A stretch of 64,000 bases of DNA from Escherichia phage Cyrano. Position 1 is the first letter of the stretch. Every line of letters starts with the position of its first letter. Shown one piece after another: positions 8,121-63,120 of this stretch. The stretch lies in sequence record OV696614; one strand, given 5' to 3'. A program made the translations under genes and the position numbers. A model generated the notes under the pieces. That model ran no database searches and was not told the DNA's origin. It saw nothing but the letters and a program-made list of their open reading frames with translations.

Positions 8121-8146
8121 AAAAAAGGCCCATATGGGCCTTTTTC
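8121..8146. terminator. Bidirectional rho-independent terminator
   Basis: aaaaaaggcccatatgggccttttt: palindromic hairpin with A-run and T-run, between convergent genes. Confidence 0.6.
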
Positions 8147-8267
8147 ATAACTTCTAGCTAACCACTACAGTGGCTTAAAGACCACTTCACCCTTGCGTTC
8201 AGCTTCAGCTTTAGCAGTCATGAATCGTTTGATCATTTCGACTTTGCTAGCATGGATAGTTTTAAAA

Positions 8268-8822
8268 TCAATCTTCCCTTTGTTTTGGGTAGTGTTGTGT
8301 TCGTATCGCATAGGAAGCTCCGTCATTTAAATAAGTTAGGCCACGCTCTTGTGTAAATCTCTTCACATATCTCTTGTATGTGGCCATCAGTTCTTCGCGT
8401 TCTGCCGCAAAGAATAAAATCTGTATGCCTTCATTGTCGGCAACTTTGAGCATTAAGTCAACTAAAGTACCGTAAAGGTATTGAAGTTCACCTAAAGTAA
8501 GATTAAAAGACCCTTCGGGTTTGGCAAATACGTTAATTGGCTCTTCCGCTCCAAGAGCGACATTCTGGAGCTGTTCTTGCTGCCTGTCAAGTTGAATCAT
8601 GTCCACAAAACTAACGACAGATACACACAACCCATAAACATCAGCACCTAACATATTATGCATAGTTTCTGCGGCAACAGGATCTAAAGAAGGAGGGCAA
8701 AAGACTAAACGGTATCTAGCCTTACGAGCTTCATTGCCAGAGAAAACAAAGTCTATATCTAAATATGACAGATCACCCGGCAATGAAGCCAAACCAGGTG
8801 TAACCAACTTATGCAAGTGCAT
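8268..8822 (-). CDS. hypothetical protein
   Basis: 184-aa minus-strand ORF in a locally reversed segment next to the integrase. Confidence 0.4.
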   Translation of the reverse strand: MHLHKLVTPGLASLPGDLSYLDIDFVFSGNEARKARYRLVFCPPSLDPVAAETMHNMLGADVYGLCVSVVSFVDMIQLDRQQEQLQNVALGAEEPINVFAKPEGSFNLTLGELQYLYGTLVDLMLKVADNEGIQILFFAAEREELMATYKRYVKRFTQERGLTYLNDGASYAIRTQHYPKQRED

Positions 8823-9089
8823 CTGTCTCGAATCCCTCTTTATTAGTATAAGTTGTCTTATTGTACCCTACCAAACGTTTATATGCATTGTTATGTATTA
8901 TTTTGATTTTCAATATTACCTCCTAGAACGAAGGGTAGATTTCAAAAAACGCATCCTCAATGATTCCATACCTACTATGTATGGAATCATTACTGAAAAT
9001 GAGTTACTTTTACTCTTGATCCTATAAGAATCTATGCCTAATATACTGTTTACTTATACAGTGCATCGGCGTAACTCGGTGATTGTCAT

Positions 9090-10193
9090 ATGAAAAATAG
9101 CTTTGACAGAGCACGCGCTGCGGAGAACACCTCAAAAGAGGCGATTGAGTATCTCGAAAGAGCATCTCAAATGCAGGCCGTTATGATCTCCCAGGTCAGC
9201 AATGACATGAGATTCTCGGACGCATTCATGTTATTCACTCGCTTATCTCTGCTGATAACAAGACGTCGGCCAGAGATCGCTGTTCATTGTATTTTGATAC
9301 ATGTTTTGCCGCACATTGCCGATGTAAAAGTAAGTGATATTAATAGGTTCATGGTGAACCAACTGGTCAACCCACTAATACTGGATGGCAAAATTGTTAT
9401 GGGTCGCCGCGTTTTCTCTCTGATGAAGCAGTTCCTCAGCTGGTGCGCCTTCCAGGGGATGATCGACGTGTCACCGTTAAACGATATGTCACTTAACAAA
9501 GTTGCCGGTGGCGCAAAGCCCACACCTCGCGAGCGGAAGCTAACCGACGCAGAGGTATGGGTGTTCTGGAATATATGGGACTACTTCAATGTGTGTGCTG
9601 GTACAAAATGGGCGGCCAGGCTATGTCTTGTATCCGCAAGACGACCTGACGAAGTACTGCGGGCTAAAAAAAGTGAGTTCAACCTCCAGCGTGGGGTTTG
9701 GAATCAAGGCAAGAGAAACAAATCAGCCCGTGAGCATTCTCTGCCTTTAAGCACATTAATGCGCACATGCATTGAAGAGTTATTCGAATATGGTAAAGGC
9801 AGCCAGTGGCTTGTGCCTTCGAATAAAAAAATCGGGAAAGATCTTCCGATGTCTAAAGTGGCAATAGCCCAGGCATTACGCCGTATCCTGGAACGACCAG
9901 AACTGATGGAGCTTGAGCCATTTACACCACGAGATTTGCGTCGTACTGCGCGTAGTTACTTCCCAGCATTAGGCATAAGCCAGGAGGTATCACGTAAAAT
10001 CATGAACCACAGTCTTGAGGGGATAGATCGGGTCTACGACCGGCACGATTATATGGACGAGATGCGAGACGCCTTAGAAAGTTTCTCGACGTACATCGCA
10101 TCAATCGTAGAGCAACCGGATTTAGACGAAATTGACCACAAATTTAAGGGAGATCGTCTATCAACAGAGCTTATTCGTGTAAATTTTTCATAG
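9090..10193 (+). CDS. tyrosine recombinase / integrase (P4-like)
   Basis: C-terminal catalytic region PRDLRRTARS..KIMNHSLEGIDRVYDRHDY (R, H-x-x-R-like, terminal Tyr). Confidence 0.7.
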   Translation: MKNSFDRARAAENTSKEAIEYLERASQMQAVMISQVSNDMRFSDAFMLFTRLSLLITRRRPEIAVHCILIHVLPHIADVKVSDINRFMVNQLVNPLILDGKIVMGRRVFSLMKQFLSWCAFQGMIDVSPLNDMSLNKVAGGAKPTPRERKLTDAEVWVFWNIWDYFNVCAGTKWAARLCLVSARRPDEVLRAKKSEFNLQRGVWNQGKRNKSAREHSLPLSTLMRTCIEELFEYGKGSQWLVPSNKKIGKDLPMSKVAIAQALRRILERPELMELEPFTPRDLRRTARSYFPALGISQEVSRKIMNHSLEGIDRVYDRHDYMDEMRDALESFSTYIASIVEQPDLDEIDHKFKGDRLSTELIRVNFS

Positions 10194-11136: not shown

Positions 11137-13245
11137 ATGTCTAAAAAACGTTCCATCAAAGAGGTTCAGGACTTCCGTGACAGTGTAAAACGAGTAGTCG
11201 CTCTCCTTTCAGGTAAAAACATCCCTGTTGCAGAACGAGGGGACGACGCTTATGTACGCTATAACGATGATGGAGAGCCAATTCTCGTAAACATCCCATC
11301 AATCCCGGATAACGCAACACCGGCATTGATGAATGCTGTGCGCGGATTTCTCGATCATGAGGTTGCTCACATTTTGTTTACCGATATTCGTGTGTCCAAC
11401 AAAATGAGAGAAAAAGGACGCGTTCCTTCCTGGTCGCTATGGAATGCCTTAGAAGACGTGTTCATCGAGCGAAAAATGGGTCAGGTCTTTAACGGAACAA
11501 GACGTAATCTGATGGCAACTCAGCGCCTTATTATCGAAAAAGTCTTTAAACCAAAGGCTTCAGAGGCTATTGCTTATTGTGGCAAAGATCAGCGCGCGCT
11601 TTTTCTAAACTTCTTTCTCTGTCCGGTTGTAAGAGCCTGGGATGGCCAAGCACCGTTCGTAGATTTCATGGATGAATATTGGCCTGTCATTGAGAAACCA
11701 ATTTCATTATTAAAAGAACATGGTATCGATGTGGCCGTGCGTAACATGTCTTGCACCGAGGATTGTGTAAAGGTGGCTGCGACCATAGCTAAGATCCTCA
11801 AAGACACTGAAAGTGAAAGCAACGGTAAGGAGTCAGCTCCGGGAAAAACTTCCGATCCTTCAGACGCTGACCAGACGGATGCCTCTGGAGAAAACAATGA
11901 AGATAACGAAGATCATGAGACACCCTCAGCGTTAGATAATCACAAATCTATCAAATCAGAATCACACAATAAGCACAAACATGATAATAATGACAGTGAT
12001 GATTTAGATAATTCTGAATCATCAGAAACAATATTCGATGATACAGAAAATGATAAAGAGGTATCAGATTCTGATGCTTCTGATAACGCGGCGTCAGAAT
12101 CATTAACCGCTGACCACGAAAAAAGAAAAACGACAGAAGACGGCTCTTCAGATATTCCAACTCCGTCAAAAATGAGTCTGGAAGAGGCTTTAGAGGAGCT
12201 GGATAGCATAGAAGATGAAGTCGGAGGCATGACAGAAGATGCTCTATCCGAAACGATTAAAAGCGAGTTAACAGAAAGCTCGAAAAGCGAATACAGGCCA
12301 TACAATCGCTCATACGACTTCATCGGCTCGATTGATCAGGCAGAAGCCCATATCAAACGGCTTATTAAAACATTCTCCGATATTGATTTAGGAGGATGTC
12401 CAATCAGCCGCTATCGCATCGTTCCTGAAGGCAACCAGCTCTTCGACAAATATATTGAAAAGCATCTTTCGTCAGGTGTTTCGTCGACGCTGGCAAAAGA
12501 CCTGGAGCGAGCAATAGCAAGCAGAAACAGAGTTCAGTTTATACCGGGCCAGCGTCGGGGGCGCATTCATGGTTCTAGTATCTACAGATTAGCAATGAAT
12601 GATGATCGCGTGTTTCGTAAAAAAGAAGAATCTAAAGCCGTTAACGCCTGTGTTCAACAAGTGATTGATTTATCAGGTTCAATGAGGGGTATAACGATAC
12701 AATTGGCTCTTGCAAGTGCATATACCATCGCCGATGCCCTTGATCGAATAAATGTTCCCAACATTATCACCGGCTTCACTACATTTGGTAGTCATATGGC
12801 GGCAGGAGAACTTAAGGCTGTCAAGTATGAGTTCTCTCGCTTTGAATCTTTAATGCTACCTATCATCAAAAATTGGAATGAAAAGGTAAATTCTCGCGAA
12901 GTTCGCTCACGTATGGGGTGCGTAGGCTACACATTCCCACTTCTTAATAACGTGGATGGTGAAAGCATAGCCAGCCTTGCATCGTTATTTTCCGGTCGCA
13001 TGGAGGACAGGAAGATCATGCTTGTTCTGAGCGATGGCGAGCCGTGGGCTGTTGGGAGAGGTTTTGACGCTCATTTGCGTTCGGTTGCGAAGCAAATTGA
13101 AACGCAGACTGACATTGATTTGATGGCAATTGGCATCATGACTGACGCACCGGAGAGATTTTACTCAAATCATGCCCTGGTAACGAGCGTTGATAGTCTT
13201 GGTTCATCTGTAGTTACTGAACTATCTCGTATCATTTTAAAGTGA
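11137..13245 (+). CDS. von Willebrand factor A domain protein (CobT-like)
   Basis: 702 aa; C-terminal vWA MIDAS motif VIDLSGSM; long acidic Ser/Asp/Glu-rich linker. Confidence 0.7.
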   Translation: MSKKRSIKEVQDFRDSVKRVVALLSGKNIPVAERGDDAYVRYNDDGEPILVNIPSIPDNATPALMNAVRGFLDHEVAHILFTDIRVSNKMREKGRVPSWSLWNALEDVFIERKMGQVFNGTRRNLMATQRLIIEKVFKPKASEAIAYCGKDQRALFLNFFLCPVVRAWDGQAPFVDFMDEYWPVIEKPISLLKEHGIDVAVRNMSCTEDCVKVAATIAKILKDTESESNGKESAPGKTSDPSDADQTDASGENNEDNEDHETPSALDNHKSIKSESHNKHKHDNNDSDDLDNSESSETIFDDTENDKEVSDSDASDNAASESLTADHEKRKTTEDGSSDIPTPSKMSLEEALEELDSIEDEVGGMTEDALSETIKSELTESSKSEYRPYNRSYDFIGSIDQAEAHIKRLIKTFSDIDLGGCPISRYRIVPEGNQLFDKYIEKHLSSGVSSTLAKDLERAIASRNRVQFIPGQRRGRIHGSSIYRLAMNDDRVFRKKEESKAVNACVQQVIDLSGSMRGITIQLALASAYTIADALDRINVPNIITGFTTFGSHMAAGELKAVKYEFSRFESLMLPIIKNWNEKVNSREVRSRMGCVGYTFPLLNNVDGESIASLASLFSGRMEDRKIMLVLSDGEPWAVGRGFDAHLRSVAKQIETQTDIDLMAIGIMTDAPERFYSNHALVTSVDSLGSSVVTELSRIILK

Positions 13246-29732: not shown

Positions 29733-29856
29733 ATTACAGTGGATAGTAGCACTCATCACAGCGGTTATCCTACCGTCTATAGTGGTTTTTCTCCTCTCTA
29801 TAGTGGTTGCTTTGCTCCCTATAGTGGATTATTCGCTCTCTATAGTGGATATCGAT
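29733..29856. repeat. Iteron array upstream of repA (origin/incC-like)
   Basis: ctctatagtggWT units at about 22-bp periodicity. Confidence 0.75.
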
Positions 29857-29898
29857 CATGTCTGAAGGCAGATGGCACAACGGTTTGAGGTGGGCGGG

Positions 29899-29971
29899 GA
29901 TCTTATTGGGTCTTTATGGGTCTCTTTGGTTCTCTTTGTGATCTGAATTACTGGATCGGGCCTGTGGATAA
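29899..29971. promoter_or_regulatory. Origin core elements: GATC sites and DnaA box
   Basis: GATC at about 29899, 29940 and 29954; perfect DnaA box tgtggataa at about 29963-29971; AT-rich stretch follows at about 30040-30110. Confidence 0.6.
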
Positions 29972-30129
29972 AAATCAGAGGATTTCAAGAACAGGTAACT
30001 CTACTCTTCTGTGGATATTTAAGGACATAAGAATCATGACTAAGAGTAGAGTTTAAAATATATCTATGTATATCAGTATGTTAATGAAGAATTAAGTCAT
30101 TAAGTTATCCATAAAAGACAATGTGCTCT

Positions 30130-30235
30130 ACTCTCTACAGTGGATATATACAGCTCTCCAGAGTGGTTGTTTTACTCTTCATAGCGGTTATTCAGCTCTC
30201 TACAGAGGTTTCTTTGCTCTCCATAGTGGATGGCA
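30130..30235. repeat. Second iteron array on far side of origin
   Basis: Five units (ctctacagtgg, ctccagagtgg, cttcatagcgg, ctctacagagg, ctccatagtgg) at 22-bp spacing. Confidence 0.7.
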
Positions 30236-30272
30236 ACACCCTTTCAGACCAGTAACCGCAACGGCTAGAGGC

Positions 30273-30330
30273 GATCGGGGATCTCTTTGGATCTTCTATT
30301 TGATCTTACTTGGGATCTCTTATTTGGATC
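30273..30330. promoter_or_regulatory. GATC cluster (probable Dam/SeqA-controlled origin element)
   Basis: Six GATC within about 58 bp at 7-13 bp spacing, followed by a DnaA-box-like agtggataa. Confidence 0.6.
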
Positions 30331-30431
30331 TATCCAGTGGATAACTGGGATAAGTAAAACAGGCAAATGCAGATTAAGGTATGCCTAATGAGTTATCGTA
30401 GCATCGGCCAATAACTACTGAAAAAACGATT

Positions 30432-39589: not shown

Positions 39590-40459
39590 ATGAACTTTAC
39601 CAAACTGACTGACCACCTGAAACTTGCCACCGATCGACTCATTGGATTTAAGCCAGAACCATATGAGTTGCATGAAGGTCATGGTGTAGCTACTGAAAGT
39701 ATTTACAAGATGGTCGATCAGTTTCATGAACTCTTCCAGCATCCGAGACGCGTTATGCCGACACCAGAGCTGCTTCGTCTCCGTGCAAGCCTGATTCATG
39801 AAGAAGCTGTAGTGGAAGGTATTCCAGCTGCAATGAATGGGGATATTGAGCAACTGCTGGATGCAATGGCCGACTTTTTATACGTTGGTGTTGGTACGAT
39901 GGTCGCCATCAAAGGTGGTATTTCTACCGGCATGACCTATTACACGCAGGAACAGAGCATTGATCGCTTTATGCAGACAATTTTTGTGCCTGGTAACACT
40001 GTTTTCGATGATATGGCAATGCCATTTCAGGAAGCTCGTGAGGCGTCATGTATGCTCGAAGAGCTGGCAGATAAACTTGAGAACAAGACTGTTAAGGATT
40101 CTGAGCTGATTCAGGAACTGCGCCGTGTCATGAACAAAATCTATGTGGCGTGCATGATGACCTATCGACTGGCTGATTTCCTCGGTATCAATGTAGTCGA
40201 GCTGGTTGGCGAAATTCATCGGTCTAACATGACAAAATTATGGCCTGCTGATGTTGAGGAACGTCGCCAGGCTGTGGCCAACTGCAAATACGACTCTTCA
40301 GATCTGGGATTCCGCCATGCTGATGGCACCGATAAGATGATCGGTTTTCGAATTTCCGATGGAAAGATTCTGAAGTCTCCAACCTATAGTGATGTCGATT
40401 TATCCTCCTTTGTTGAGCAAGCTAAAGCCTCAGCAATGTACGGAATGATCAAAAAATAA
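39590..40459 (+). CDS. hypothetical protein, possibly MazG-like NTP pyrophosphohydrolase
   Basis: 289 aa; acidic helical motif LIHEEAVVEGIPAAMNGDIEQLLDAMADFLYV resembles the MazG EExxE..D pattern; tentative. Confidence 0.4.
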   Translation: MNFTKLTDHLKLATDRLIGFKPEPYELHEGHGVATESIYKMVDQFHELFQHPRRVMPTPELLRLRASLIHEEAVVEGIPAAMNGDIEQLLDAMADFLYVGVGTMVAIKGGISTGMTYYTQEQSIDRFMQTIFVPGNTVFDDMAMPFQEAREASCMLEELADKLENKTVKDSELIQELRRVMNKIYVACMMTYRLADFLGINVVELVGEIHRSNMTKLWPADVEERRQAVANCKYDSSDLGFRHADGTDKMIGFRISDGKILKSPTYSDVDLSSFVEQAKASAMYGMIKK

Positions 40460-40629
40460 TTGTAGGTAGTTATCTATCTGTGTATATTTAACATGCGTAA
40501 TAAAACTCTGGAATGACTATTCGTTTTGGTGGCCTATGGCCACCATTTTTTTATCTGTCTGGTCTTGTTCTCTCAATGAATGTAAACTCACACGATGAAT
40601 AAGTAATTACTTATCTTTGTGAGGTTTTT

Positions 40630-41733
40630 GTGTCACTCCTTTTGAATCGAGAGCATACGAACGGTCAGGTAACAAACGCATCGTATGCAAAAGTTATTGA
40701 GACGGTGCTTAAAAGCGGCGTGCAGGCTGATGATCGCACAGGCACTGGCACTTTAAGCACCTGCTACGTTCCCTCTTACTACATGCTTACTGGTGGGACT
40801 GTGCCGCTTATTTCTGGAAAGGCGGTAAATCTTAAGCCACTACTTGTCGAACTTGAGTGGTATCTGAAAGGCACGGGCAACATCCAATTTCTCAAGGATA
40901 ACGGCGTTAAGATTTGGGATGCATGGGCCGATGAGAATGGCGATTTGGGGCCGGTTTACGGTAAGCAGTGGCGTCGATGGGAAGATACCCGCATCGTGAG
41001 CCATAGTGAATATCTGAGCAAGATCGCTACTTTCCGTGAACGCGGGTACAAAGTCGAGGGATACCTGGGTATCAGTGAAGATCGCGTAGTGCTGTCCCGT
41101 GAAATCGATCAGCTACAGCGTATTGTCGATACACTGCGCACGAACCCTACCGATCGTCGCATCATGCTTAACGCATGGAACGTAGGCGAGCTTGAGGATA
41201 TGAAACTGCCACCTTGCCACTTTGTCTTCTCTTTGTGGAGTCGTGAGCTGGATTTTGAAACCCGTTTAACGATGGCAACTGACATTGGTCTTCAACACAG
41301 TCGCCTCGGTTACGAGTCTATCTACACCAAGATGCTATACGATCTGGAGATGGACGGCAGTGTTACTGAAGCTGAACTGGATGAACTTGGAATCCCCAAA
41401 CGCATCCTCAACTCCTGCCTCGTACAGCGTAGCGTAGACACTTTTGTTGGTATGCCATTCAATATTGCTGGCTATGGCATTCTCACTCATTTTCTCGCGA
41501 AGATTACGGGTCACATGGCCGGTGCATTTGTGCATTTTGGCTTTGACGTGCATTTGTACAACAACCACATGGAAGGTGTGTGTGAGCTAATGAAACGACA
41601 GGCTCCAGAGCATTCAGATCCGGTCGTTATTTTCCCTCATGAATGGTCAGAGTTGGATGATTTCAAATGGGACGAGGTTTTAATTCTTGGCTATGACCCT
41701 CTACCGTGGATCAAGGTTCCAGTGGCGGTGTGA
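40630..41733 (+). CDS. Thymidylate synthase with internal insertion
   Basis: 367 aa; ThyA blocks DRTGTGTLS, DENGDLGPVYGKQWR, NAWNVGELE, PCH, GMPFNIAGY; about 100 extra residues. Confidence 0.85.
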   Translation: MSLLLNREHTNGQVTNASYAKVIETVLKSGVQADDRTGTGTLSTCYVPSYYMLTGGTVPLISGKAVNLKPLLVELEWYLKGTGNIQFLKDNGVKIWDAWADENGDLGPVYGKQWRRWEDTRIVSHSEYLSKIATFRERGYKVEGYLGISEDRVVLSREIDQLQRIVDTLRTNPTDRRIMLNAWNVGELEDMKLPPCHFVFSLWSRELDFETRLTMATDIGLQHSRLGYESIYTKMLYDLEMDGSVTEAELDELGIPKRILNSCLVQRSVDTFVGMPFNIAGYGILTHFLAKITGHMAGAFVHFGFDVHLYNNHMEGVCELMKRQAPEHSDPVVIFPHEWSELDDFKWDEVLILGYDPLPWIKVPVAV

Positions 41734-41734
41734 T

Positions 41735-42148
41735 ATGGCAAGAGGTATGTATGTCTTATGCGAAATTGAAGGTGTGCTGGCAAATGCCAGCCATCGTAAA
41801 TCAGTATCTGACGCGGATGCAGGCCAGCTCATTGCCGGTGATGAACTCATTTTCCCCACCAGCCGTATGTTGCGTGGTTTTGCTCGCTCAGGGGCTGAAG
41901 TGGTGCTTATCAGTAGCCGCTCTGAAACTCTTGAAGCGCCCACTAAACGATGGCTGAAAGATTTTGGCGTTGATTACGACTGGCTTCATCTCGTACCGAA
42001 TAGCACCAGTTATGAGAAGCATATTAAGCGCACATTAGCGGAGCATAAAGGCGATCTGCTTATCGCTGCGCTGGTGCACGATCCTCGACTCCGTGCCGCT
42101 TTAGCTGACTCTCATCATAGACCGGTCATCTATGAGGTGAGCAAATGA
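41735..42148 (+). CDS. hypothetical protein
   Basis: Start moved to ATG right after the thyA stop (MARGMYVL); 137 aa. Confidence 0.4.
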   Translation: MARGMYVLCEIEGVLANASHRKSVSDADAGQLIAGDELIFPTSRMLRGFARSGAEVVLISSRSETLEAPTKRWLKDFGVDYDWLHLVPNSTSYEKHIKRTLAEHKGDLLIAALVHDPRLRAALADSHHRPVIYEVSK

Positions 42149-42621
42149 AGATGATAGCTGCTGTTGGCCGTAACTATGAGATCGGCATAGCGAACGAACT
42201 GCCCTGGCGTTGTTCTACCGATCTGAAGCTATTTAAGAGACTCACCAAAAACGCCACTGTCGTTATGGGGCGTAAAACGATGGAAAGTCTCAAACGCCCT
42301 CTTCCAGAGCGTCATAACCTCGTTTTGACGCGCTCTCATGGCTTTGTACCAAATGGATTCTACCCTGCTGGTGTGGATGATGTGTTGCGATTACCAGAGC
42401 CTGTGTGGGTGATTGGCGGGGAACAAATTTACTCGCTATTCATGCCGCATGTTGAAGAGATTTGGCTCTCCCACATCGGCGTTGATGTACCAAACGCCGA
42501 TGCATTCTTCCCGGCAAGCATGATGCGTAACTTAGGCTTTGTGCCTGTTGAAACAGCTTATACCCAACGAGCCAGCGAGGAAGAGCCTGGCTTTTCGCAG
42601 ATCGTATACAGAAGGTCGTAA
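42145..42621 (+). CDS. Dihydrofolate reductase
   Basis: 158 aa; MIAAVGRNYEIG..LPW, VVMGRKT, VIGGEQIY motifs. Confidence 0.85.
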   Translation: MKMIAAVGRNYEIGIANELPWRCSTDLKLFKRLTKNATVVMGRKTMESLKRPLPERHNLVLTRSHGFVPNGFYPAGVDDVLRLPEPVWVIGGEQIYSLFMPHVEEIWLSHIGVDVPNADAFFPASMMRNLGFVPVETAYTQRASEEEPGFSQIVYRRS

Positions 42622-43265
42622 TGGATTACCGGATTGGGATCACTGGTGCTCAGGGCAGTGGGAAAACAACCCTGGCTAAATATATCGACAAACATTACGG
42701 AATCCCTTACGTGGATGCTGGTGTCGGAAGTTTGATGAGCCGCCTCGGTGTTCGAGTAGGTGAGTCTATGCCTCTATATGAGCGGCTTCAGATTCAAATG
42801 GAAATAGCAAAGCATATAGAGCTACTTACACGTGGTGTTGAAGGCTTTGTTATCGATCGCACACCTGCTGATGTTATGGCCTACACGTTGGATTTGGTCG
42901 GCCATACAAATGAAGATCGGTGTATTGAGTTAGCCCTCGATATCGAAAAGTTTTGCCACAAAACTGCTATTTCAAACTTTAACGCCATTGCTGGCCTACG
43001 CCCGGGGGTCGCTCTCTCAGAGCGAGATTACTTGCGATCACAACGAGCATCATTAGACCGTCTGTATGTCGCTCGTATTGATGCGTTGATGTGCGGGGAA
43101 CTGACAAAAATTCACCTGCATCCGCAAAGGGGAGATCTGCAAACCTTCGTCGTTTCCAACCGATATCGCACGGTTGAAGCAAGAGCCAGATCAGTGATGA
43201 GAATGCTAGATAACGCTGTAGAAAAGATAGAAAACCGGTTCTGTGGCCGAGTAACCGTTCATTAG
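42621..43265 (+). CDS. P-loop nucleotide kinase (dNMP kinase-like)
   Basis: 214 aa; Walker A GITGAQGSGKTT near N-terminus; sits in the nucleotide-metabolism cluster. Confidence 0.55.
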   Translation: MDYRIGITGAQGSGKTTLAKYIDKHYGIPYVDAGVGSLMSRLGVRVGESMPLYERLQIQMEIAKHIELLTRGVEGFVIDRTPADVMAYTLDLVGHTNEDRCIELALDIEKFCHKTAISNFNAIAGLRPGVALSERDYLRSQRASLDRLYVARIDALMCGELTKIHLHPQRGDLQTFVVSNRYRTVEARARSVMRMLDNAVEKIENRFCGRVTVH

Positions 43266-43326
43266 AAATTGTTCGCCTCTTCGACATTGCGACAATAAAA
43301 CTCTCAAAATGGGTTAAGGATAAAAA

Positions 43327-43746
43327 ATGTTTAGTGAAATGTTACTTGAAGATGAACTGGATCGGAAAACAACAGAGGCTTTGATTCGTGTAGCGGACGA
43401 ACATTCCCGGTCGCTTATGAGCGATCGAGAGGCTCGTCTGGCTATTCGTACCGTATTCGAAATTGCGCAAGGGCTTGTTGGCGCACAAGTAGGTGAAGCC
43501 ATTAACATCGCCATGTCTCAGTTCAGTGAAGACAGTAAAAAGCCTCTGTTTCCTATGCATTTGATGCTGGCTGGTGGCACGGTGCTTTATATCTCTGTTT
43601 GTCTGGATAGCAACCAAATCAATATTCTCAACACTGCGTCAGGTAAGTGGAAAGATCCGATTGTCTGTGAAACCAGTGAAGAAACTTTGAAAAAAGCGGC
43701 TCAATTTGTACGTAGCGCACTACTTAAGGGCGCTAAGAAGTTGTAA
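43327..43746 (+). CDS. hypothetical protein
   Basis: 139-aa ORF. Confidence 0.4.
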   Translation: MFSEMLLEDELDRKTTEALIRVADEHSRSLMSDREARLAIRTVFEIAQGLVGAQVGEAINIAMSQFSEDSKKPLFPMHLMLAGGTVLYISVCLDSNQINILNTASGKWKDPIVCETSEETLKKAAQFVRSALLKGAKKL

Positions 43747-43755
43747 GGAGTTCTG

Positions 43756-44313
43756 ATGACAACGATTGTTGCAGGCATCGATATCGAGTCTACGGGACTG
43801 GATTTCCTTGCTGGTCATAAAATTATTGAAATCGCAATTACCCGCTATGAACTGGAGACACAGAGACATATTGATAGTCTGGAGATGCGTTTTAACCCTC
43901 GCAGAAACATAGATCCGAAAGCTCAAGCCGTTCATGGCATTTCATTAGAACAGCTGGCAGCTGAACCTTTGTTGTCAAATCATGCCAGCGAAATTGGCGC
44001 TTATATGGAGGCATGTAGTGCGTGGGTTGCTCATAACGGCGAAGCATTTGATATACCATTTATTAGACACGAGTTTTCAGGGTATGGAGTAAGACTGCCA
44101 GACGTTCCCGTTATAGATACTATGTTATCGGGATTGTGGGCCACAGAAGACGGTAAACGTCCTCGTCTTGAAGAATTGGCCTTCTCTCTTGGCTTTATAT
44201 ACGATCATGCCAAAGCACATAGTGCCTTATATGACACAAACTTAATGATGCAATGCTTCTTTAAGGCACGTAATAAATACGGATTTTTTAAATTACCCTC
44301 TGAAATTGTGTAA
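43756..44313 (+). CDS. DnaQ-like 3'-5' exonuclease
   Basis: 185 aa; Exo I GIDIESTG, Exo II AHNGEAFDIPF, Exo III HSALYDT; AGGAG RBS. Confidence 0.75.
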   Translation: MTTIVAGIDIESTGLDFLAGHKIIEIAITRYELETQRHIDSLEMRFNPRRNIDPKAQAVHGISLEQLAAEPLLSNHASEIGAYMEACSAWVAHNGEAFDIPFIRHEFSGYGVRLPDVPVIDTMLSGLWATEDGKRPRLEELAFSLGFIYDHAKAHSALYDTNLMMQCFFKARNKYGFFKLPSEIV

Positions 44314-44317
44314 AACA

Positions 44318-44357
44318 AAAGCCTGCTTTAAAGAGAGTTTGAAGCAGGCTTTCTTTT
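44318..44357 (+). terminator. Probable rho-independent terminator
   Basis: agcctgctt .. aagcaggct stem followed by ttcttttaaag. Confidence 0.5.
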
Positions 44358-44473
44358 AAAGAACAGTCGCCTTTCAATCATTTCCTGCCTGTATTTAATA
44401 CTTTTCCGCCTGATAGGTTTAGTCAAAATGTAGCCATCGAAACGCAAATGCAACTAAACAGAAGGAGACTTAC

Positions 44474-45283
44474 ATGAGTTCGGTTGAAAATGTAATGACA
44501 AATGATGATCTGGATGAGCTGACAGCCATGTTGCAATCACTTGATGAACCAGTAAAAAAAGCTGCACAGGTTGAAAATACTGATGATATTGACGATCTGC
44601 TTCTCGGCCTCGATGCTGGCGTAGCCATGAGTTCTGATGATGTTGCCGAAGAACTGTTCAATGAAGAAAAAGCAGGTGATTTCAGCTCTGCTTTAAATGA
44701 GTTGGAGTTAGCGCATGAGCCTATAAACGTAATTAATGCTGAAAGTGTTGAAGCTGCCGTAAACGAGCCAGAACAATTGGGATTTATTGAGGTTGAAGGG
44801 TGTGTTGAGGTTAATGAAGAATTAAAAGTTCAACAGTCAAATGATAGCAATACAAATAAAAAAGCTCGTACTGCAAGAGGTCCTCGCTTCACTTTAAGTG
44901 ATAAAGATGATTCGTTTTTCAATAAAGCGGGCTTAGAAAAAGATATTTTCTTAGACGCTTACGATAACGCGCCTGTCAAAGCAAAGGATAAGATATTAAA
45001 CCTTCTTAATTGGTTTAGCGGAGGTCCAGATATTAGTGTTTACACGGTAATTTCCATGAGACACCTTCTCACAGAAAAGAAGGCTACAAGTAATAGTATT
45101 AAGATTGCTTTAATGAGCAATCCAGAAAAACCGTATCCGCTTAACACTGCGTCAACTCAGGCTGGGCAAATGATGGCTGTATTTCCAGCGACAGGAATTG
45201 CCGTTAGAGACGGTGGAAATCTAACATTGAACGAAGAATCACCGATCGTTAAGAAGTTTGTAGCGGAGTACACTATTGGATGA
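44474..45283 (+). CDS. highly acidic protein, unknown function
   Basis: 269 aa; N-terminal half very rich in Asp/Glu; GAAGGAG RBS. Confidence 0.5.
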   Translation: MSSVENVMTNDDLDELTAMLQSLDEPVKKAAQVENTDDIDDLLLGLDAGVAMSSDDVAEELFNEEKAGDFSSALNELELAHEPINVINAESVEAAVNEPEQLGFIEVEGCVEVNEELKVQQSNDSNTNKKARTARGPRFTLSDKDDSFFNKAGLEKDIFLDAYDNAPVKAKDKILNLLNWFSGGPDISVYTVISMRHLLTEKKATSNSIKIALMSNPEKPYPLNTASTQAGQMMAVFPATGIAVRDGGNLTLNEESPIVKKFVAEYTIG

Positions 45284-48585: not shown

Positions 48586-49011
48586 ATGTTAGGTTTCTTC
48601 AAAAAGAAAACTCGTAAAGCAGTTATCGAAGTCAAAAAAATGGAGAACCGTGATGCGGTTGAGGCCACCGTGTGGGGCGCGTACATGATCTCCTATGCCG
48701 ACGGCACATGTGACGCAAAAGAAATTGCCATTCTTGAGAAGACAATTGCAGCTCTGCCTGCGTTTTCTCCGTTTGCTGGTGAAATTGCCCAAATGAGCGC
48801 CAATATCCGTGCTCGTTACGAAGCGTCCCCTCGTTCTGCTAATGCACAGGCTATTCGTGAGCTGTCTGATATTGCGGGTACTCCAGAGGCGGTCGATGTT
48901 CTGTGTCTGTGCCTTGATATTGCCGACCAGGACGGCATTGATGAACCAGAAGAGCAGGCGCTGAAAAAGATCGCCCAGGCGCTTCAGTTGTCACTGGATG
49001 CTTATCTCTAA
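48586..49011 (+). CDS. TerB-like domain protein (tentative)
   Basis: 141 aa; helical acidic pattern ADGTCDAKEIAILEK..EQALKKIA reminiscent of TerB; tentative. Confidence 0.4.
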   Translation: MLGFFKKKTRKAVIEVKKMENRDAVEATVWGAYMISYADGTCDAKEIAILEKTIAALPAFSPFAGEIAQMSANIRARYEASPRSANAQAIRELSDIAGTPEAVDVLCLCLDIADQDGIDEPEEQALKKIAQALQLSLDAYL

Positions 49012-49276
49012 TGCTTGAGAGATTCCGGCTTGTGACCGTCATTGCTCTTCTGGTGATAGCGGTGTTGGTGGATTTTACGGGAAAGATGATGTCTGTCATT
49101 TCTGATGGCGTCCTCATTGGTCTGGCGATCTACTTCGCTTATCCGCTAGTCCGTAAAGCAACGTGTTAATGACAAGGGCCAAATGGCCCTTGTGTTTCGT
49201 TGACCGAAATAGAGAGTTTGCACCTTTACGTTTAGCTTGCTCCCCTTTTATGCCACATCACAATAAAGCCAATAAG

Positions 49277-49292
49277 AAAACAACTTGTTTAA
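49277..49292. promoter_or_regulatory. Palindromic motif AAACAA-N-TTGTTT
   Basis: aaaacaacttgtttaa upstream of the 49309 start. Confidence 0.4.
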
Positions 49293-49308
49293 GCATTAGG
49301 AAAAATAC

Positions 49309-49878
49309 ATGTGCAAGAAATGCAAAGCGATAGCTGATGAACAAAACGCCTTATTCGAAGAAATGGATGCTAATGAGCTGGTCAAAATGTTAGCCATTCT
49401 TCGAGGAATAGAAGACGTTTCCATATTTGAGAGAGTGGTTACAGCACTTAATTTTGAGTCCACCTTTGAAGAGCCAACTCAGGTTGTAGCTTTAGCACAT
49501 CATTTCGGTGTTCATTATCTTGCTGAAAAAGAGCGCGCTGATAAGTTGCAGGCGACTTTGGATATGGTGAGCGAGACTCAACGAACTGATGACACTAACA
49601 AGAGTGAGGCGATTATTGCCAGCAAAGATCGTGAAATTGCTGGGCTTAAATCCTCTCTAACGATGTTGATGTCTGCGTTCAATCTTATGTCTTCTCAGGC
49701 GGGTTATAAAATGCCATCACTAAACAGCGATGATCCGATGGCCGTTCGTCAGCTTTTGGGAGCAATGGCCGACCAACTCGACGACACAAAGAGTCGCCTT
49801 GAAGACATGATGCGTGAGTTAAGCCATCGACATAACCTCGCAACACAACCACACAAAGTCTTTCAAAGCTCTAATTGA
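49309..49878 (+). CDS. hypothetical protein
   Basis: 189 aa; N-terminal CKKC. Confidence 0.45.
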   Translation: MCKKCKAIADEQNALFEEMDANELVKMLAILRGIEDVSIFERVVTALNFESTFEEPTQVVALAHHFGVHYLAEKERADKLQATLDMVSETQRTDDTNKSEAIIASKDREIAGLKSSLTMLMSAFNLMSSQAGYKMPSLNSDDPMAVRQLLGAMADQLDDTKSRLEDMMRELSHRHNLATQPHKVFQSSN

Positions 49879-49932
49879 TCTGATATGGCCGCATGATCGG
49901 CCATATTGTGTTGATAAAAACAAGGGTGAAAA

Positions 49933-50214
49933 ATGGCATACGGTACAGGGATTTACAACAATAAAGGAATTAACGTTACTGGCTTCCTTACACCTATTTT
50001 TTTTCTTGATCGATTTACGGCGTCATCAGGCTCTAAGACGTACTCTAATCCGCCACCGGGTAAATCACTACATGCCGTGTGGTCATTAATGCCTCTTAAC
50101 AACGACAACTACATCAATTTACCTGTTCCAAATGTTACTATTAATGGAAATACGGTTAGTTGGTCAAATTTATATACGGGGCTTGGTTCTTACATATACA
50201 CATACTGGGGATAA
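49933..50214 (+). CDS. hypothetical protein (AT-rich cassette)
   Basis: 93 aa; Asn/Tyr/Thr/Gly-rich; noticeably AT-rich local DNA. Confidence 0.4.
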   Translation: MAYGTGIYNNKGINVTGFLTPIFFLDRFTASSGSKTYSNPPPGKSLHAVWSLMPLNNDNYINLPVPNVTINGNTVSWSNLYTGLGSYIYTYWG

Positions 50215-50216
50215 TT

Positions 50217-50831
50217 ATGTTCGGGATGTCAATTACTCAATCAGATGGAAGTTTGTGGATGAGTCCAGAATTTACTCCGCAAAATCTGATTAATAAAGGG
50301 ACAATGTCTACATCTAAAGGTTCTGTTTTTCAAACATCAATCCCATCAAACAAATCATGTTTTTTTTTCATAAAAAGCAGTAATAAGGCGAACATGATGT
50401 TTATTCATGAGCATAGTAACGGATACAATGCTCTCAGATTGCATCAGGTAAATGGTAGCCCCGGAACAATAACAGTTTATGCTTTTTCTGATATGGTGTT
50501 ACCACATTCTGGCTATGGCATTGCCATGTATAACAGCGCAGGCGCAATGGTGTATCACGGTGAGATGATGCCCCTTGATGCGAAACTTATCACTATTTCT
50601 GACCCTCAATTTACAATAGATATGGGGTATCCATGTGCGGTAATGCCTGCTATGGTTGGAGTATATAACTATAGACGAACCGATTACGACAGACCTGTCT
50701 ATGTAACAATGACAGGTGCAACTGGAAACCAAGTATATAACGGTAAATGGTATTCCGGTAATGTCACATGGGATATTAAGAAGATTTATACAAACAAAAT
50801 TCTGGTGATAAATACCTCCAAGTATGATTAG
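50217..50831 (+). CDS. hypothetical protein (AT-rich cassette)
   Basis: Start moved to ATG 3 nt after the upstream stop; about 204 aa; beta-rich Tyr/Asn/Thr composition. Confidence 0.45.
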   Translation: MFGMSITQSDGSLWMSPEFTPQNLINKGTMSTSKGSVFQTSIPSNKSCFFFIKSSNKANMMFIHEHSNGYNALRLHQVNGSPGTITVYAFSDMVLPHSGYGIAMYNSAGAMVYHGEMMPLDAKLITISDPQFTIDMGYPCAVMPAMVGVYNYRRTDYDRPVYVTMTGATGNQVYNGKWYSGNVTWDIKKIYTNKILVINTSKYD

Positions 50832-50934
50832 CCAATGCCTTTATTTGAAGGATTGCCTGTTTATTTCTATTTAGTACCTTTTCATTTTTGAAATAATTGC
50901 ACCATTAAACAAATCACTTCTTAATGGTGCAATT

Positions 50935-52620
50935 ATGAATACAGCCCTTTCCATCATCGACGATGCCAACTCAAACACTGCTATCGACTATCGGCAGGAA
51001 ATGAACGTCATCCACGAAATTGTGGCCGAGTGCGAGAAAGAGATCGCTTTCATGTACCAGGTTCACGACTTCGTTTATGGCGACGAACGCCACAACATGA
51101 TTAATCGCCTGCTGCAACTGAACCACCGACCAGATGAAGAACGCTCACGTTTGAATCGAGCTTGGCTGGATAAAGTCGATCTGGAATGGGTGAAACAGAA
51201 TATTTGGGCCGAGTACTGGAGGAAGGTCACGGACATGACTAACGTTTTGCTGATCATGCCAGCTTCCCGTCGAGATGAGTGGCGCGAGCAGTTTATAGAG
51301 GGCAAACAGGAAGTCATCAAAACTGACAGAACCGGCTACCAGATGAAGGTTAAAGAGTTCGTTGGTGTACCGGAGTTCAAAGCAGAAACGGTCATACCCA
51401 CGATGCTTAATTTGCTGAATGACAGGCACAAATATCTCTCTGAGCGCGTGTATGGCTTGTTTAAGGCGCTGAGTCCTGCGCACAAGACAAATAAGACAAA
51501 CGGTTTCAGCGAGCGGCTGATAATCGCTGACTGCATTTCTGATTTCTGGCGGGACAGCGTTAGCGTGAACTATCGCAAAGAGGACTACATCGACGATCTG
51601 CGTGTCTTGCTTCATTTCTTCGCGCACAAAGAATTTATTACCATCAACCGCACTGCTGAGGTGCTATCAGCTGCGTATCGGGCAAACGACTGCCAGACCG
51701 GTGACTGGATGAACGTCGATGGAAATCTGATGCGCGTGAAGATGTTCAAGAACGGCAACGTTCACTTTGAAATACATCCTGACGTGGCCTGGAAGTTGAA
51801 TGAGGTGCTGGCTTACAGTATGCCTGCTGCAATTCCCGCGCCATGCCGAACTGCGCCAAAAACACGGGCACCAAAGCAGTTCGGGTTAATCCAGAAGACG
51901 ATCTCCGTGCCGGTTCGCACTGCGCTTCGTGACGGGCGATTGAGCAAAGACAAAGGCGTATGGTACTTCTCTGATTCAGCTCTCCAGAAGTCGCAGGTGG
52001 AAGAGCTTGAGCGCACACTGAGCTTCATTGGCGGCGTGCAGGAGAAAAAGCACTGGCAGTTCCCGTATGACATCGGCCATACGCTAAATACGATTGTGGC
52101 TACCGGTTTAATACCGGATACAAAATCACACCAGTTCTACCCTACCCCACGCTTGATTGCTGAGTACGTTGCCAGAGCCACTGAATTGAAGCCTGGTGAG
52201 AAGCTGCTTGAGCCTCAAGCCGGACGTGGGGATCTTCTGGCCTATATTAACGCCGATCTGGAAGATGTTACCTGCATAGAAATCGCACCTCTCTTCGCTG
52301 ATATCCTGCGTGGAAAAGGGTATACGAACACGATTTGCTGCGACTTCATAAAGTGGTCTGAGGACAACGCAGGTTATCAGTTCGACAAAATCGTTATGAA
52401 CCCGCCGTACTCGCTTGGTCGTCATAGAGAGCACACGCTGGCTGCGCTGGGGCATCTGAAAGTCGGCGGGCGTCTTGTAGCAGTATTGCCGGGCACTGCG
52501 CCAATCCTGAGCTGGATGACGATGGATAATTACGTTTATGCCAAAGGGAAGTCGTTTACCAACGAGTTTGAAGATACCGGGATCACAGTCAGCGTATACG
52601 TTTTCAAACGCGTTAAATGA
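50935..52620 (+). CDS. N6-adenine DNA methyltransferase with large N-terminal domain
   Basis: 561 aa; C-terminal SAM-binding LEPQAGRGDL and catalytic MNPPYS; N-terminal about 380 aa unassigned. Confidence 0.65.
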   Translation: MNTALSIIDDANSNTAIDYRQEMNVIHEIVAECEKEIAFMYQVHDFVYGDERHNMINRLLQLNHRPDEERSRLNRAWLDKVDLEWVKQNIWAEYWRKVTDMTNVLLIMPASRRDEWREQFIEGKQEVIKTDRTGYQMKVKEFVGVPEFKAETVIPTMLNLLNDRHKYLSERVYGLFKALSPAHKTNKTNGFSERLIIADCISDFWRDSVSVNYRKEDYIDDLRVLLHFFAHKEFITINRTAEVLSAAYRANDCQTGDWMNVDGNLMRVKMFKNGNVHFEIHPDVAWKLNEVLAYSMPAAIPAPCRTAPKTRAPKQFGLIQKTISVPVRTALRDGRLSKDKGVWYFSDSALQKSQVEELERTLSFIGGVQEKKHWQFPYDIGHTLNTIVATGLIPDTKSHQFYPTPRLIAEYVARATELKPGEKLLEPQAGRGDLLAYINADLEDVTCIEIAPLFADILRGKGYTNTICCDFIKWSEDNAGYQFDKIVMNPPYSLGRHREHTLAALGHLKVGGRLVAVLPGTAPILSWMTMDNYVYAKGKSFTNEFEDTGITVSVYVFKRVK

Positions 52621-61490: not shown

Positions 61491-61535
61491 CAGATATTAA
61501 AGCATTGGTAGTTTGTTTTTAGGATTATCAAAGAA

Positions 61536-62270
61536 ATGAAAAAGTTGAAAAGTTTAGAAATCCCTGGAACTGGTTATAAATTCTTTATGGACAACGCGGA
61601 GTGTGCACCTAACGCGTTGGAAAAAATACAAAGTCTTATCAACAGCCTTACTGAAGAAGCGAAAGAACTGAAGAGCGAGGCGACAAAGGACAATACAGCT
61701 AAAATCCAATGCTTAAATCTCGTCTCTTATTGTTTATATCAAGTATCCAAAACACTGATTAAAGGCAATATCTATTACGACGATGAAGACACCTCGACAC
61801 CTGAAGAAAAAGATAGCGATGAAGAACTCTATGAAGATATCTCTACTAGTGCGGGTCACGCTGCCTTCGATGCTATGGGTGAATCGTCAGGCATCAGATC
61901 ATTTGTTGAACAGAACAATTCGACAATAATGATTGAGTACTGTGAACAAACAAGCTCCAAGGCCATACATGTTCTTCACGATGTTGCTGCAGGGGTTCGC
62001 TGTGAGGCTGAAGCGGTCAGAAAAGATGTATTTGGTGCAGACAGTAATACCGTGAAAGCGTTTATCAACAGTGCTCTGCTAAATTCTTACTCAAACCTTA
62101 TAGTCAATGCGGCACTATGCGCAAATTCAGGTGAAGAACACATTGTCATAACTGAAACCAAACATGAGCATCAACAGTCACCAACCATAGAAGAGGTAAC
62201 TGCATTGGCTATCAAACAGGCGAGTGAAATTAGTGATGAAATTCTCTCTCTGCTAAACAAAACTAAGTAA
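61536..62270 (+). CDS. hypothetical acidic protein
   Basis: 244 aa; acidic, Ser/Glu-rich. Confidence 0.45.
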   Translation: MKKLKSLEIPGTGYKFFMDNAECAPNALEKIQSLINSLTEEAKELKSEATKDNTAKIQCLNLVSYCLYQVSKTLIKGNIYYDDEDTSTPEEKDSDEELYEDISTSAGHAAFDAMGESSGIRSFVEQNNSTIMIEYCEQTSSKAIHVLHDVAAGVRCEAEAVRKDVFGADSNTVKAFINSALLNSYSNLIVNAALCANSGEEHIVITETKHEHQQSPTIEEVTALAIKQASEISDEILSLLNKTK

Positions 62271-62399
62271 AACATTGATAATGGCGGTCACAATTTGATT
62301 CTTTTCTATAAGAATCCGTTGATCGCCACTACTCCCCTTCCATACCCGCAACCACATCCTTAAATATCAATAAGTTATAGTTGTTTATACAATCAAGAA

Positions 62400-63120
62400 A
62401 ACAACTGAATAACAGATCAACGAAACGTCAACGCTTTCACCCGATTTGGCCTAAAAAATTGACGTTTTCACACATCACTGCTTATACCCGTAATTCTACG
62501 CAGCAGACAGCACCACAGCGTTCAATTTTCACCACAGACGACTCAACACACTACCAACAAAAACACACGCTCAAAATCGCTCCCGTTGCGTTACATAACC
62601 ATATAAACAACTTATTTTCAGGCATAACAAAACAACTAAATAACACATATGCCATTACCCAAAACAACCAACCTCTTTATGGCAGGCTACCGAAAAGACC
62701 CACCTCTTCTTCCCAGGCTACCGGACAACCAACCTAACTTTCACAGGCAATCCGAAAACATTCATACGCGCGATACCCACGACACGCCATTACCCAAACA
62801 GCGAAGAAACACCAGAATCACTGAAACCCCAACGAAGCCTGTAACCGCAAGGTTTCTCTCAATCCCAAAAGACACGAAACATAACAATCACGGGAAACGC
62901 CATTACCCAATACACGAATAACTACAAAAGCCTTTCACACACTCCAGACAAACAACTCAAACACAATAACGAAAGGAATCGCCCACCTGCCATTACTCCA
63001 TACACGGAGAAGAACAATCACCAAAACGACGAGAACACCCCATAGAAGAACCACCGCAAAACTAACGAAACCACATACACCGACAGAGAAAACAACACAC
63101 CCAATTCACCAACAGAAATA
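62400..63120. repeat. Strand-asymmetric A+C-rich noncoding region with dispersed GCCATTACYC repeats
   Basis: Top strand almost devoid of G and T runs; four copies of gccattac(c/t)c at about 62651, 62786, 62899 and 62989. Confidence 0.5.

Follow-up and report, generated by a model that had tools for sequence, protein, structure and literature searches.

The terminal receptor of small siphoviruses was found to be matched without exception by the alleles of their 'bona fide RBP loci' (RBP, receptor-binding protein) (Maffei et al. 2021, PMC8594841). This correlation was confirmed by genome-wide screens and AlphaFold3 models in a study that also mentions co-localised accessory proteins (bioRxiv 10.64898/2026.04.02.716166), and in another work it was proposed, from modelling alone, that a pair made of an immunoglobulin (Ig)-like protein and a hand-like protein of about 21 kDa represents undetected receptor-binding proteins (Matusiak et al. 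2025, PMC12309495). Here we describe such a pair of genes, open reading frames (ORFs) 1 and 2, which form a cassette at 49933-50831 of a 64,000-nucleotide stretch of DNA recorded as Escherichia phage Cyrano (OV696614; the whole stretch is referred to below as the window). We propose, with a probability of roughly 0.6, that the cassette is a two-subunit, obligatory receptor-recognition module of the virion of an SSU5-like phage-plasmid. A two-part tail-tip module for receptor recognition is in itself a known, widely exchanged and recently proposed kind of module; what was not found described in the literature is the ectopic position of this one, its complementary distribution with a pair in the tail locus, its standing as a divergence hot spot in backbones that are otherwise nearly identical, and its sharing with virulent Queuovirinae and Shiga toxin (Stx) phages. 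In phage T5, pb5 (oad), whose gene stands apart from those of the rest of the tail, is a dedicated RBP which is held non-covalently on the straight central fibre and sets the specificity for a TonB-dependent transporter. The mode of action proposed for the window pair is like that of pb5, which is a single 640-residue protein with a linked exclusion lipoprotein, Llp; no homology between the two was detected.

ORF1 (49933-50214, plus strand, ATG start) encodes 93 amino acids and ORF2 (50217-50831, plus strand) encodes 204 amino acids from its ATG, the mechanical list of open reading frames extending the latter upstream to a TTG at 50160. The ratio of nonsynonymous to synonymous substitution rates (dN/dS) was 0.06-0.10 against the PhiR41_1 and JenP1 alleles, and both are therefore real genes. 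ORF1 was assigned to phrog_557 (6.1e-29, over residues 1-93) and ORF2 to phrog_425 (2.7e-72, over residues 1-204), and nothing above threshold was found for either in Pfam and NCBIfam. The first-pass annotation had described two adjacent genes of about 93 and 204 codons whose beta-rich, Tyr/Asn/Thr/Gly-rich products lack recognisable motifs. The description of the genes and of their products was borne out, as both AlphaFold2 models are all-beta and as Asn, Tyr, Thr, Gly and Ser together account for 52% of the residues in ORF1 and 40% in ORF2 compared with 26% in the long ORFs of the window, with Glu, Arg, Ala and Leu depleted in both; the lack of motifs holds for Pfam and NCBIfam and fails for PHROGs (6e-29 and 3e-72, rounded).

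The model of ORF1 has seven strands (predicted local distance difference test score, pLDDT, 82.8), and phrog_557 corresponds to the 'small Ig-like protein' of Matusiak et al. (2025, PMC12309495). ORF2, of about 22 kDa, was modelled with higher scores (pLDDT 92.6, predicted template modelling score 0.87) as a two-lobed protein. We propose that ORF1 acts as an adaptor or co-subunit of a tail-tip receptor-binding module, of which ORF2 would be the putative receptor-binding subunit. The published likeness of the small protein to the C-terminal domain of lambda gpJ could not be confirmed by Foldseek with the ORF1 model. A threefold repeat of a single domain, with ORF1 and each lobe of ORF2 (N and C) as one copy, was also considered and rejected, as hhalign gave no significant match and all that the three have in common is a short 'YG-x-x-I-x-N-x-x-G' motif at the start of each. 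Matches to ORF1 and ORF2 were found by tblastn in 277 and 325 phage records, respectively, and 188 clusters were retrieved at E <=1e-3 when 1.84 billion cluster representatives were searched with a profile; the family is small, yet widespread among enterobacterial phages.

Genes of phrog_557 and phrog_425 are always adjacent, the small one followed by the large one on the same strand, and are mostly abutting or 1-5 nt apart. Furthermore, single-chain fusions of about 315-322 residues exist in which phrog_557 is N-terminal and phrog_425 C-terminal (P0085, 4e-8 and 4e-28; P0194, 5e-12 and 1e-20). To judge from such gene arrangements, ORF1 and ORF2 are likely to work together. In all of the other lineages examined (at least five), the pair lies beside the tail-tip gene. 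In JenP1 it is gp22/gp21, between gpJ and a tail protein gene; in FritzSarasin (Drexlerviridae) the order is lipoprotein, small, large, convergent on gpJ; PeterMerian and herni have gpJ, small, large and then Cor on the opposite strand; and in SaltyDalty, a temperate member of the Hendrixvirinae, gpJ is followed by lipoprotein, small and large. In SSU5 the order is tail fibre, adhesin, SSU5_023, SSU5_024, Cor-like, and in short-tailed Stx phages it is J-like gp61/ORF71, small, large, Lom. PHROG scans placed the pairs of PeterMerian and SSU5 in families 557 and 425 as well.

The nearest example with a typed receptor is FritzSarasin (Bas04), with the lipoprotein bas04_0025 followed by bas04_0024 and bas04_0023. 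The window pair resembles it in both families, in the gene order, in the 2-nt gap, in alignment over the full length (ORF1 49%; ORF2 39.0% at 100% coverage) and in the C-terminal motif of J, and differs from it in lying far from gpJ and in having no linked exclusion lipoprotein. A similar identity was found between ORF2 and SaltyDalty CDS0061 (39.7%), whereas the FhuA/Cor-type proteins and SSU5_024 reached 23-31%, mainly over the first 130 or so residues. Upstream of the pair, FritzSarasin and SaltyDalty have homologous lipoproteins of about 87-89 residues (bas04_0025 and CDS0063, lipobox LTGC), whose probable role is superinfection exclusion directed at BtuB, by analogy with Cor, Llp and Rtp45; lipoproteins of this type are missing from the sub-clade formed by JenP1, the Stx phages and the phage-plasmids.

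Outside the phage-plasmids, the closest relative is the pair of JenP1 (Nonagvirus, Queuovirinae), with protein identities of 76% for ORF1 (gp22) and 82% for ORF2 (gp21). JenP1 has no lipoprotein gene either, and it differs in being a virulent phage with modified DNA whose pair is on the opposite strand. The Stx-phage pairs, namely Sp5 ORF72/ORF73 (ECs1234/1235), phi24B YP_009168169/70 and 933W L0126 with its downstream neighbour, are 63-66% (small) and 61% (large) identical to the window pair; they are in the same order, directly after a J-like protein with the shared motif, and are likewise without a lipoprotein, but are found in phages whose virion is a podovirus. SSU5_023 and SSU5_024 belong to the same PHROG families (7.6e-22 and 7.5e-44) and to the same phage-plasmid lineage, and are only 27-30% identical to the window pair (30% for ORF1 with SSU5_023). 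Together with the Cor-like SSU5_025 they form a trio after the tail fibre and tail-fibre assembly genes, in SSU5 and also in many SSU5-like plasmids of E. coli and Enterobacter.

The genes flanking the cassette match those of Salmonella phage SSU5, and 1.7 kb around the cassette is 100% identical to the E. coli plasmids CP057560.1 and NZ_CP124469.1; we conclude therefore that the window is part of an E. coli SSU5-like phage-plasmid. CP057560.1 is pRHB23-C03_2, a non-mobilizable IncFIB plasmid of 109,880 bp, and its head, tail and lysis genes lie in the remainder of the plasmid, outside the window. The same 1.7 kb is 98.4% identical to 'Escherichia phage CMS-2020a', and the flanks of the cassette are matched by 537 plasmid records. 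The J gene of CP057560.1 spans 39691-44418 and its cassette about 87.7-88.6 kb, so that the cassette lies about 45-50 kb from the tail genes and is beside neither gpJ nor the tail-spike gene. More than 100 plasmids of E. coli and Shigella have it fixed at this site.

A conserved end, ..(I/V)xVxDxNGxLRVxIGR(L).., was seen in eight of eight aligned tail-tip proteins from genomes carrying phrog_557 and phrog_425, these being the J proteins of the window's plasmid, JenP1, FritzSarasin, PeterMerian, herni, SaltyDalty and SSU5, and the Stx gp61. The J of pRHB23-C03_2 (1575 residues) ends in ...IDVYDDNNVLRVRIGRL, and Stx gp61 has 422 residues. This shared C-terminal end may well be the docking site of the pair. 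In the mechanism that we propose, ORF1 and ORF2 would be made in the cytoplasm during lytic growth, presumably late, would assemble non-covalently on the conserved end of the J-like central tail-tip protein and would so become incorporated into the virion. The target of the pair at the tail tip would be a beta-barrel protein of the E. coli outer membrane, and binding to it would set the terminal receptor and the host range.

The distribution of the pair is in line with a role in the virion of the phage-plasmid. In the plasmid of the window the ectopic pair is the only one and the tail fibre gene is directly followed by the holin gene, whereas in the tail locus of CP099126.1 and SSU5 a tail-fibre assembly protein is followed by 023-like, 024-like and Cor genes; no second copy of the cassette and no SSU5_023/024/Cor trio was found in the window or in the other 47 kb of the identical plasmid. 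With a combined megablast query, the ectopic cassette or the SSU5-type pair was located at 192 places in 185 Escherichia/Shigella plasmids, and thus no more than 7 plasmids carry both pairs. Counts made with tblastn agree with near mutual exclusivity of the two pair types, and the SSU5-type trio of the tail locus appears to be the alternative which the cassette of the window replaces. The tail fibre itself also varies. A 2.9-kb block of CP099126.1 (3594-6449) with the distal tail fibre, assembly protein, 023-like, 024-like and Cor genes is replaced in CP057560.1 by a 1-kb alternative C-terminus of the tail fibre (7186-8207 of the stretch compared), so that this lineage has exchanged a second determinant of host range as well.

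A structural link to a receptor-binding protein was provided by phage Oekolampad. Its RBP bas18_0025 (321 residues), which like Rtp44 belongs to the LptD-binding single-chain RBPs of about 310-320 residues and is encoded convergent on gpJ and beside a lipoprotein gene, was solved bound to LptDE by cryo-electron microscopy (PDB 9RPT; Dunbar et al., bioRxiv 10.1101/2025.07.07.663478), and in the same work an exclusion role was shown for the neighbouring lipoprotein, Rtp45. The fold predicted for ORF2 is similar to that of this solved protein. In profile searches the Oekolampad RBP matches Pfam DUF6453 (2e-121) and phrog_1265 (2e-122), to which ORF2 has weak matches (0.011 and 2.2e-6, the former below the gathering score), so that ORF2 is a distant structural relative of the Oekolampad RBP and not a member of the DUF6453 family. 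The two systems also differ in that the Oekolampad RBP is one chain with LptD as its receptor, while the window has two chains, and in that the extreme C-terminus of the Oekolampad J is unlike that of the J proteins of phrog_557/425 carriers.

Several points weigh against an obligatory receptor-binding role of the cassette. Direct receptor binding has been shown solely for the distant DUF6453 RBP of Oekolampad, while for phrog_557/425 proteins the case is made by receptor correlation and predicted structures, and the sequence similarity of ORF2 to the Oekolampad RBP is itself marginal, with 3 bits in a direct profile search and a probability below 1% by hhalign with that one sequence as the target. 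A profile of ORF2 homologues had no match among PDB sequences up to E 10, and a Foldseek search of the PDB with the ORF1 model gave no significant match, lambda gpJ included, the best matches (E 0.4) being the Sf6 tailspike and pyocin fibre tips. No homologue of Cor, of Llp-type proteins or of another exclusion lipoprotein was found anywhere in the plasmid, the window included; many typed loci have such a linked lipoprotein, although it is not universal. The cassette lies in the same orientation among early or plasmid-type genes with no promoter recognised, so that co-expression with the late tail genes is assumed, and the significance of the mutual exclusivity (Fisher one-sided p <=1e-18) is naive, the shared ancestry of the plasmids being ignored. 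A counterpoint to necessity comes from the Stx2 phage Sp5, in which ORF72 (92 residues) and ORF73 (205 residues), 61-66% identical to the window pair, were deleted individually in frame and were not among the nine essential genes, essentiality being scored as plaques or lysogeny on K-12, while the J-like ORF71 was essential for tail formation (Mondal et al. 2016, PMC5155283). In this podovirus the pair is thus at most auxiliary.

It is possible that the same holds for the window, in which case the pair at the tail tip would raise the adsorption rate or add a receptor, and J or the side tail fibre would carry the essential recognition. We give this a low but appreciable probability, and all of the homology and context evidence fits it equally well. 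The Sp5 deletion mutants still infect K-12 (PMC5155283), the few plasmids with two pairs suggest additive use, and SSU5 was reported to use the lipopolysaccharide (LPS) core through its tail fibre gp22, according to a statement quoted in PMC12312913. Against an auxiliary adhesin, the allele predicts the terminal receptor of small siphoviruses without exception and receptor knock-outs abolish infection; the near mutual exclusivity of the pair types suggests that one pair is needed and not optional; and in the J of the window's plasmid the shared motif forms the end of the protein, no additional receptor-binding domain following it. On the role of this protein pair, what the siphovirus receptor correlations suggest is thus in conflict with its dispensability in Sp5, and an obligatory module remains the reading that we favour for the window.

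That the cassette lies away from the structural module, with early or accessory genes around it, could also point to a competition factor which is not part of the virion, that is, a decoy capping the J tips of co-infecting phages, or a protein masking the receptors of neighbouring cells after lysis. The J-tip motif is common to many competing E. coli phages, a few phage-plasmids also retain a complete pair in the tail locus, and PHROGs places family 425 in the class 'moron/host takeover'. Most carriers of the cassette, however, have no other pair and would then lack the module for which their J tip seems to be built, and neither ORF has an export signal. Expression data are available for Cyrano (pLF82) of E. 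coli LF82, in which the same cassette, CYRAN_88/CYRAN_89, is located between CYRAN_87 and the DUF4942 gene (supplementary table). In lysogens the values for CYRAN_88 and CYRAN_89 were 7.6 and 11.4, those of the neighbours about 5-11, and that of a true lysogeny-expressed gene 117. This background level leaves no constitutive protection of the lysogen by such a factor. We know of no precedent for it, and an inter-phage weapon made on induction, capping J tips with the ..NG.LRV.IGR.. end or masking BtuB- or BamA-type receptors, seems quite improbable. Somewhat more support can be claimed for the idea that the RBP module was detached from the tail operon and now occupies a swap site of its own, where host range could be exchanged with virulent phages while the structural genes stay untouched.

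The same expression values argue against a role in lysogenic conversion, in which the two products would be membrane proteins that act in the host envelope, either like Lom or in exclusion. Such a role is suggested by the database names 'outer membrane protein' and 'membrane associated protein' (RefSeq phage records, PHROGs) and by the position of the Stx-phage pair next to lom. Neither ORF1 nor ORF2 has a signal peptide, a lipobox or a transmembrane segment, the maximum 19-residue Kyte-Doolittle hydropathy being 0.94 and 1.10, respectively, and the models are soluble beta-sandwich folds. In addition, a low membrane affinity was computed for homologues (Matusiak et al. 2025, PMC12309495), and the true exclusion lipoproteins of these loci have genes of their own (bas04_0025, SaltyDalty CDS0063 and the Cor proteins). 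This explanation is largely refuted and we regard it as scarcely tenable; non-virion roles in general are disfavoured.

The cassette stands out in its base composition. Its guanine plus cytosine (GC) content is 38.3%, compared with 45.9% for the whole window; the 899-bp windows had a mean of 45.9% and a standard deviation of 3.1%, 0.6% of them were as low as the cassette, and the global minimum of the window (36.7%) is centred on it. The GC content at third codon positions is 0.36 in both ORFs and 0.42-0.60 in the adjacent genes. The cassette is the extreme of a tail and not unique in the window, as AT-rich troughs are also found at 44219-45117 (37.6% GC), 8210-9108 (38.3%) and 61495-62393 (38.9%). 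The first of these covers an acidic 269-residue ORF at 44474-45283, and the three may be further mobile or accessory segments. Homologous cassettes had 37-45% GC in genomes of 43-52% at all nine loci compared (JenP1, FritzSarasin, TL-2011c, SSU5, PeterMerian, herni, SaltyDalty, PhiR41_1 and the window), and since low GC is a family trait in every lineage compared, it is not a date stamp.

The first-pass annotation had taken the AT-richness of the cassette relative to its neighbours, which we confirm, as a sign of recent horizontal acquisition, and the protein composition as a resemblance to carbohydrate-binding or surface proteins. Horizontal mobility is upheld, on account of homology rather than GC content: the cassette is an insertion relative to SSU5, it is shared with JenP1 and the Stx phages, and its alleles are swapped. 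Recency is not shown, because beyond the phage-plasmids no relative is closer than 76% identity and because so many plasmids have the cassette fixed at this site. A surface location agrees with the homologues, which are tail-tip RBPs on the surface of the phage, while carbohydrate binding is unsupported. It had been reasoned that a GC content within normal local variation together with clear homology to ordinary structural proteins would speak against the acquisition; the GC content is outside normal variation, yet there is clear homology to virion host-recognition proteins. Lectin-like proteins recognising LPS or capsule would account for the beta-rich, Asn/Tyr/Thr/Gly-rich composition and for a weak structural resemblance to the C-terminal domains of tailspikes, pyocin fibre tips and some carbohydrate-binding modules. 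Neither by homology nor by a clear match in fold could the two proteins be linked to lectins or other carbohydrate-binding families, and we consider this very improbable.

The boundaries of the cassette could be placed closely. Homology to SSU5 breaks off close to the end of the SSU5_094 homologue (49857) and restarts at 50877, 58 bp before the ATG of the methylase gene. About 1 kb of the window thus stands in the place of some 100 bp of SSU5, and by this comparison the cassette is an insertion relative to SSU5. The match to JenP1 takes in both ORFs and the ribosome-binding site and nothing else (exactly 49926-50831, 76% nucleotide identity), and homology to Stx phage TL-2011c covers 49925-50831 at 65%. 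Relative to PhiR41_1, whose record names E. coli K-12 MG1655 as its host, the cassette has 77-89% identity, the protein identity of the two alleles being 83%, while most of the flanking sequence has 92-100%, with one dip to 75% at 48800; here the synonymous divergence (dS) is 0.65-0.85 and dN/dS 0.08-0.10. Distinct alleles in near-identical phage-plasmid backbones make the cassette a divergence hot spot, and it consists of old alleles which recombination has moved and purifying selection has maintained, as was described for RBP loci.

The left junction (49858-49925, plus strand, 68 bp) matches neither SSU5 nor JenP1. A hairpin at about 49874-49915, with the core arms ATATGGCCG and CGGCCATAT, directly follows the stop of the upstream gene, and the fold of the RNA at 49872-49932 has -17.5 kcal/mol (z -3.3; none of 200 shuffled sequences was as stable). 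The hairpin may serve to stabilise RNA or may be a partial terminator; no T-run terminator was called at this junction by a simple scan, and a scan for sigma-70 promoters called none for the cassette. A Shine-Dalgarno-like AAGGGTG (49922-49928, plus strand) lies 4 nt before the ATG of ORF1, within the segment common to JenP1 and the Stx phages. A region of translational coupling (50207-50219, plus strand) comprises GGGG at 50207-50210, the ORF1 stop TAA at 50212-50214 and, 2 nt after the stop, the ORF2 ATG at 50217-50219. This gap is also 2 nt in JenP1, FritzSarasin and SaltyDalty; the genes abut or are 1 nt apart in PeterMerian and herni, and the gap is 5 nt in PhiR41_1 and 41 nt in SSU5. At the right junction (50832-50876, plus strand, 45 bp), where homology to JenP1 stops at 50831 and which again matches neither SSU5 nor JenP1, a weak hairpin at about 50833-50855 is followed by a U-rich stretch. 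Together they are a possible weak terminator of the cassette, and no terminator was called there by the simple scan. A convincing pair of flanking repeats was not found in 48900-51100, a search in which the junctions were not specifically checked for short target-site duplications.

As to the receptor itself, FritzSarasin and JK16 use BtuB and PeterMerian uses FhuA (PMC8594841; bioRxiv 10.64898/2026.04.02.716166), and BtuB is the predicted receptor of SaltyDalty. The hits recorded for FritzSarasin (Bas04) were btuB, tonB, dcrB and sdaC. In the receptor-prediction preprint, membership of the BtuB RBP family was defined by >30% identity and >99% coverage to typed members (bioRxiv 10.64898/2026.04.02.716166). 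By this >30%, full-coverage rule ORF2 would group with the BtuB family, provided that the large gene is the one which the preprint calls the RBP of the locus. Closer relatives of ORF2 (61% identity) are found in phi24B-type phages, and BamA was reported as the receptor of phi24B, without being assigned to its gene pair (PMC12309495). BtuB, from the typed siphovirus relatives, and BamA, from phi24B, may be guessed as candidates by analogy, and the 49%/39% identity to FritzSarasin is too low for a confident transfer of BtuB specificity. Phage herni was rejected as a proxy for the BtuB phage Bas06, as the herni locus is of the FhuA/Cor type. JenP1, BRET and 933W are not mentioned in the supplements of the preprint, full-text literature searches gave no data on the receptor of JenP1 and nothing useful for PhiR41/PhiR12, and no E. 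coli receptor of an SSU5-like phage-plasmid was found in the literature.

The cassette is flanked by the SSU5_094 homologue, an early gene at 49309-49878, upstream and by a DUF4942/DNA methylase gene (50935-52620) downstream. A perfect 16-nt inverted repeat at 50893-50936 (ATAATTGCACCATTAA / TTAATGGTGCAATTAT, 12-nt loop), which is also conserved in SSU5, overlaps with its right arm the ATG of the methylase gene (50935). The RNA fold of 50832-50945 has -26.8 kcal/mol (z -4.1), and the repeat may act in start-codon occlusion, as a translational control, or as an operator. Just upstream of the SSU5_094 homologue, an element of about 32 nt (49262-49293) recurs upstream of other SSU5 genes with 94% (11876-11907) and 87% (5974-6004) identity and may be a shared regulatory site. 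Further upstream, the ORFs at 48586-49011 and 49011-49169 are the counterparts of Cyrano CYRAN_85 and CYRAN_86, annotated as P1 TciA-like and TciB-like, the first of which is labelled 'tellurite resistance protein' in one plasmid record. Elsewhere in the window, tandem repeats resembling iterons are found at 29776-29852 and 30124-30229 (21 bp) and at 30285-30331 (24 bp), and the region 29776-30331 is probably the plasmid replication origin. A strong anomaly of strand composition, with a GC skew of -0.48 and an AT skew of +0.41 within 500 bp, was seen at 62501-63000.

Phage-plasmids of the SSU5 type occur commonly in E. coli, Klebsiella, Enterobacter and Salmonella, and they can carry antibiotic-resistance genes (PMC9600943). 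If the cassette is indeed an obligatory receptor-recognition module, the host-range determinant of more than 100 sequenced plasmids would be identified. Since it lies outside the tail operon, it would be missed by pipelines and receptor predictors which look only downstream of gpJ, and the PHROG and RefSeq labels 'outer membrane protein' and 'membrane associated protein', corrected here, are misleading. Finally, the cassette would document the exchange of a module among temperate phage-plasmids, Stx-converting podoviruses, virulent Queuovirinae and Drexlerviridae.

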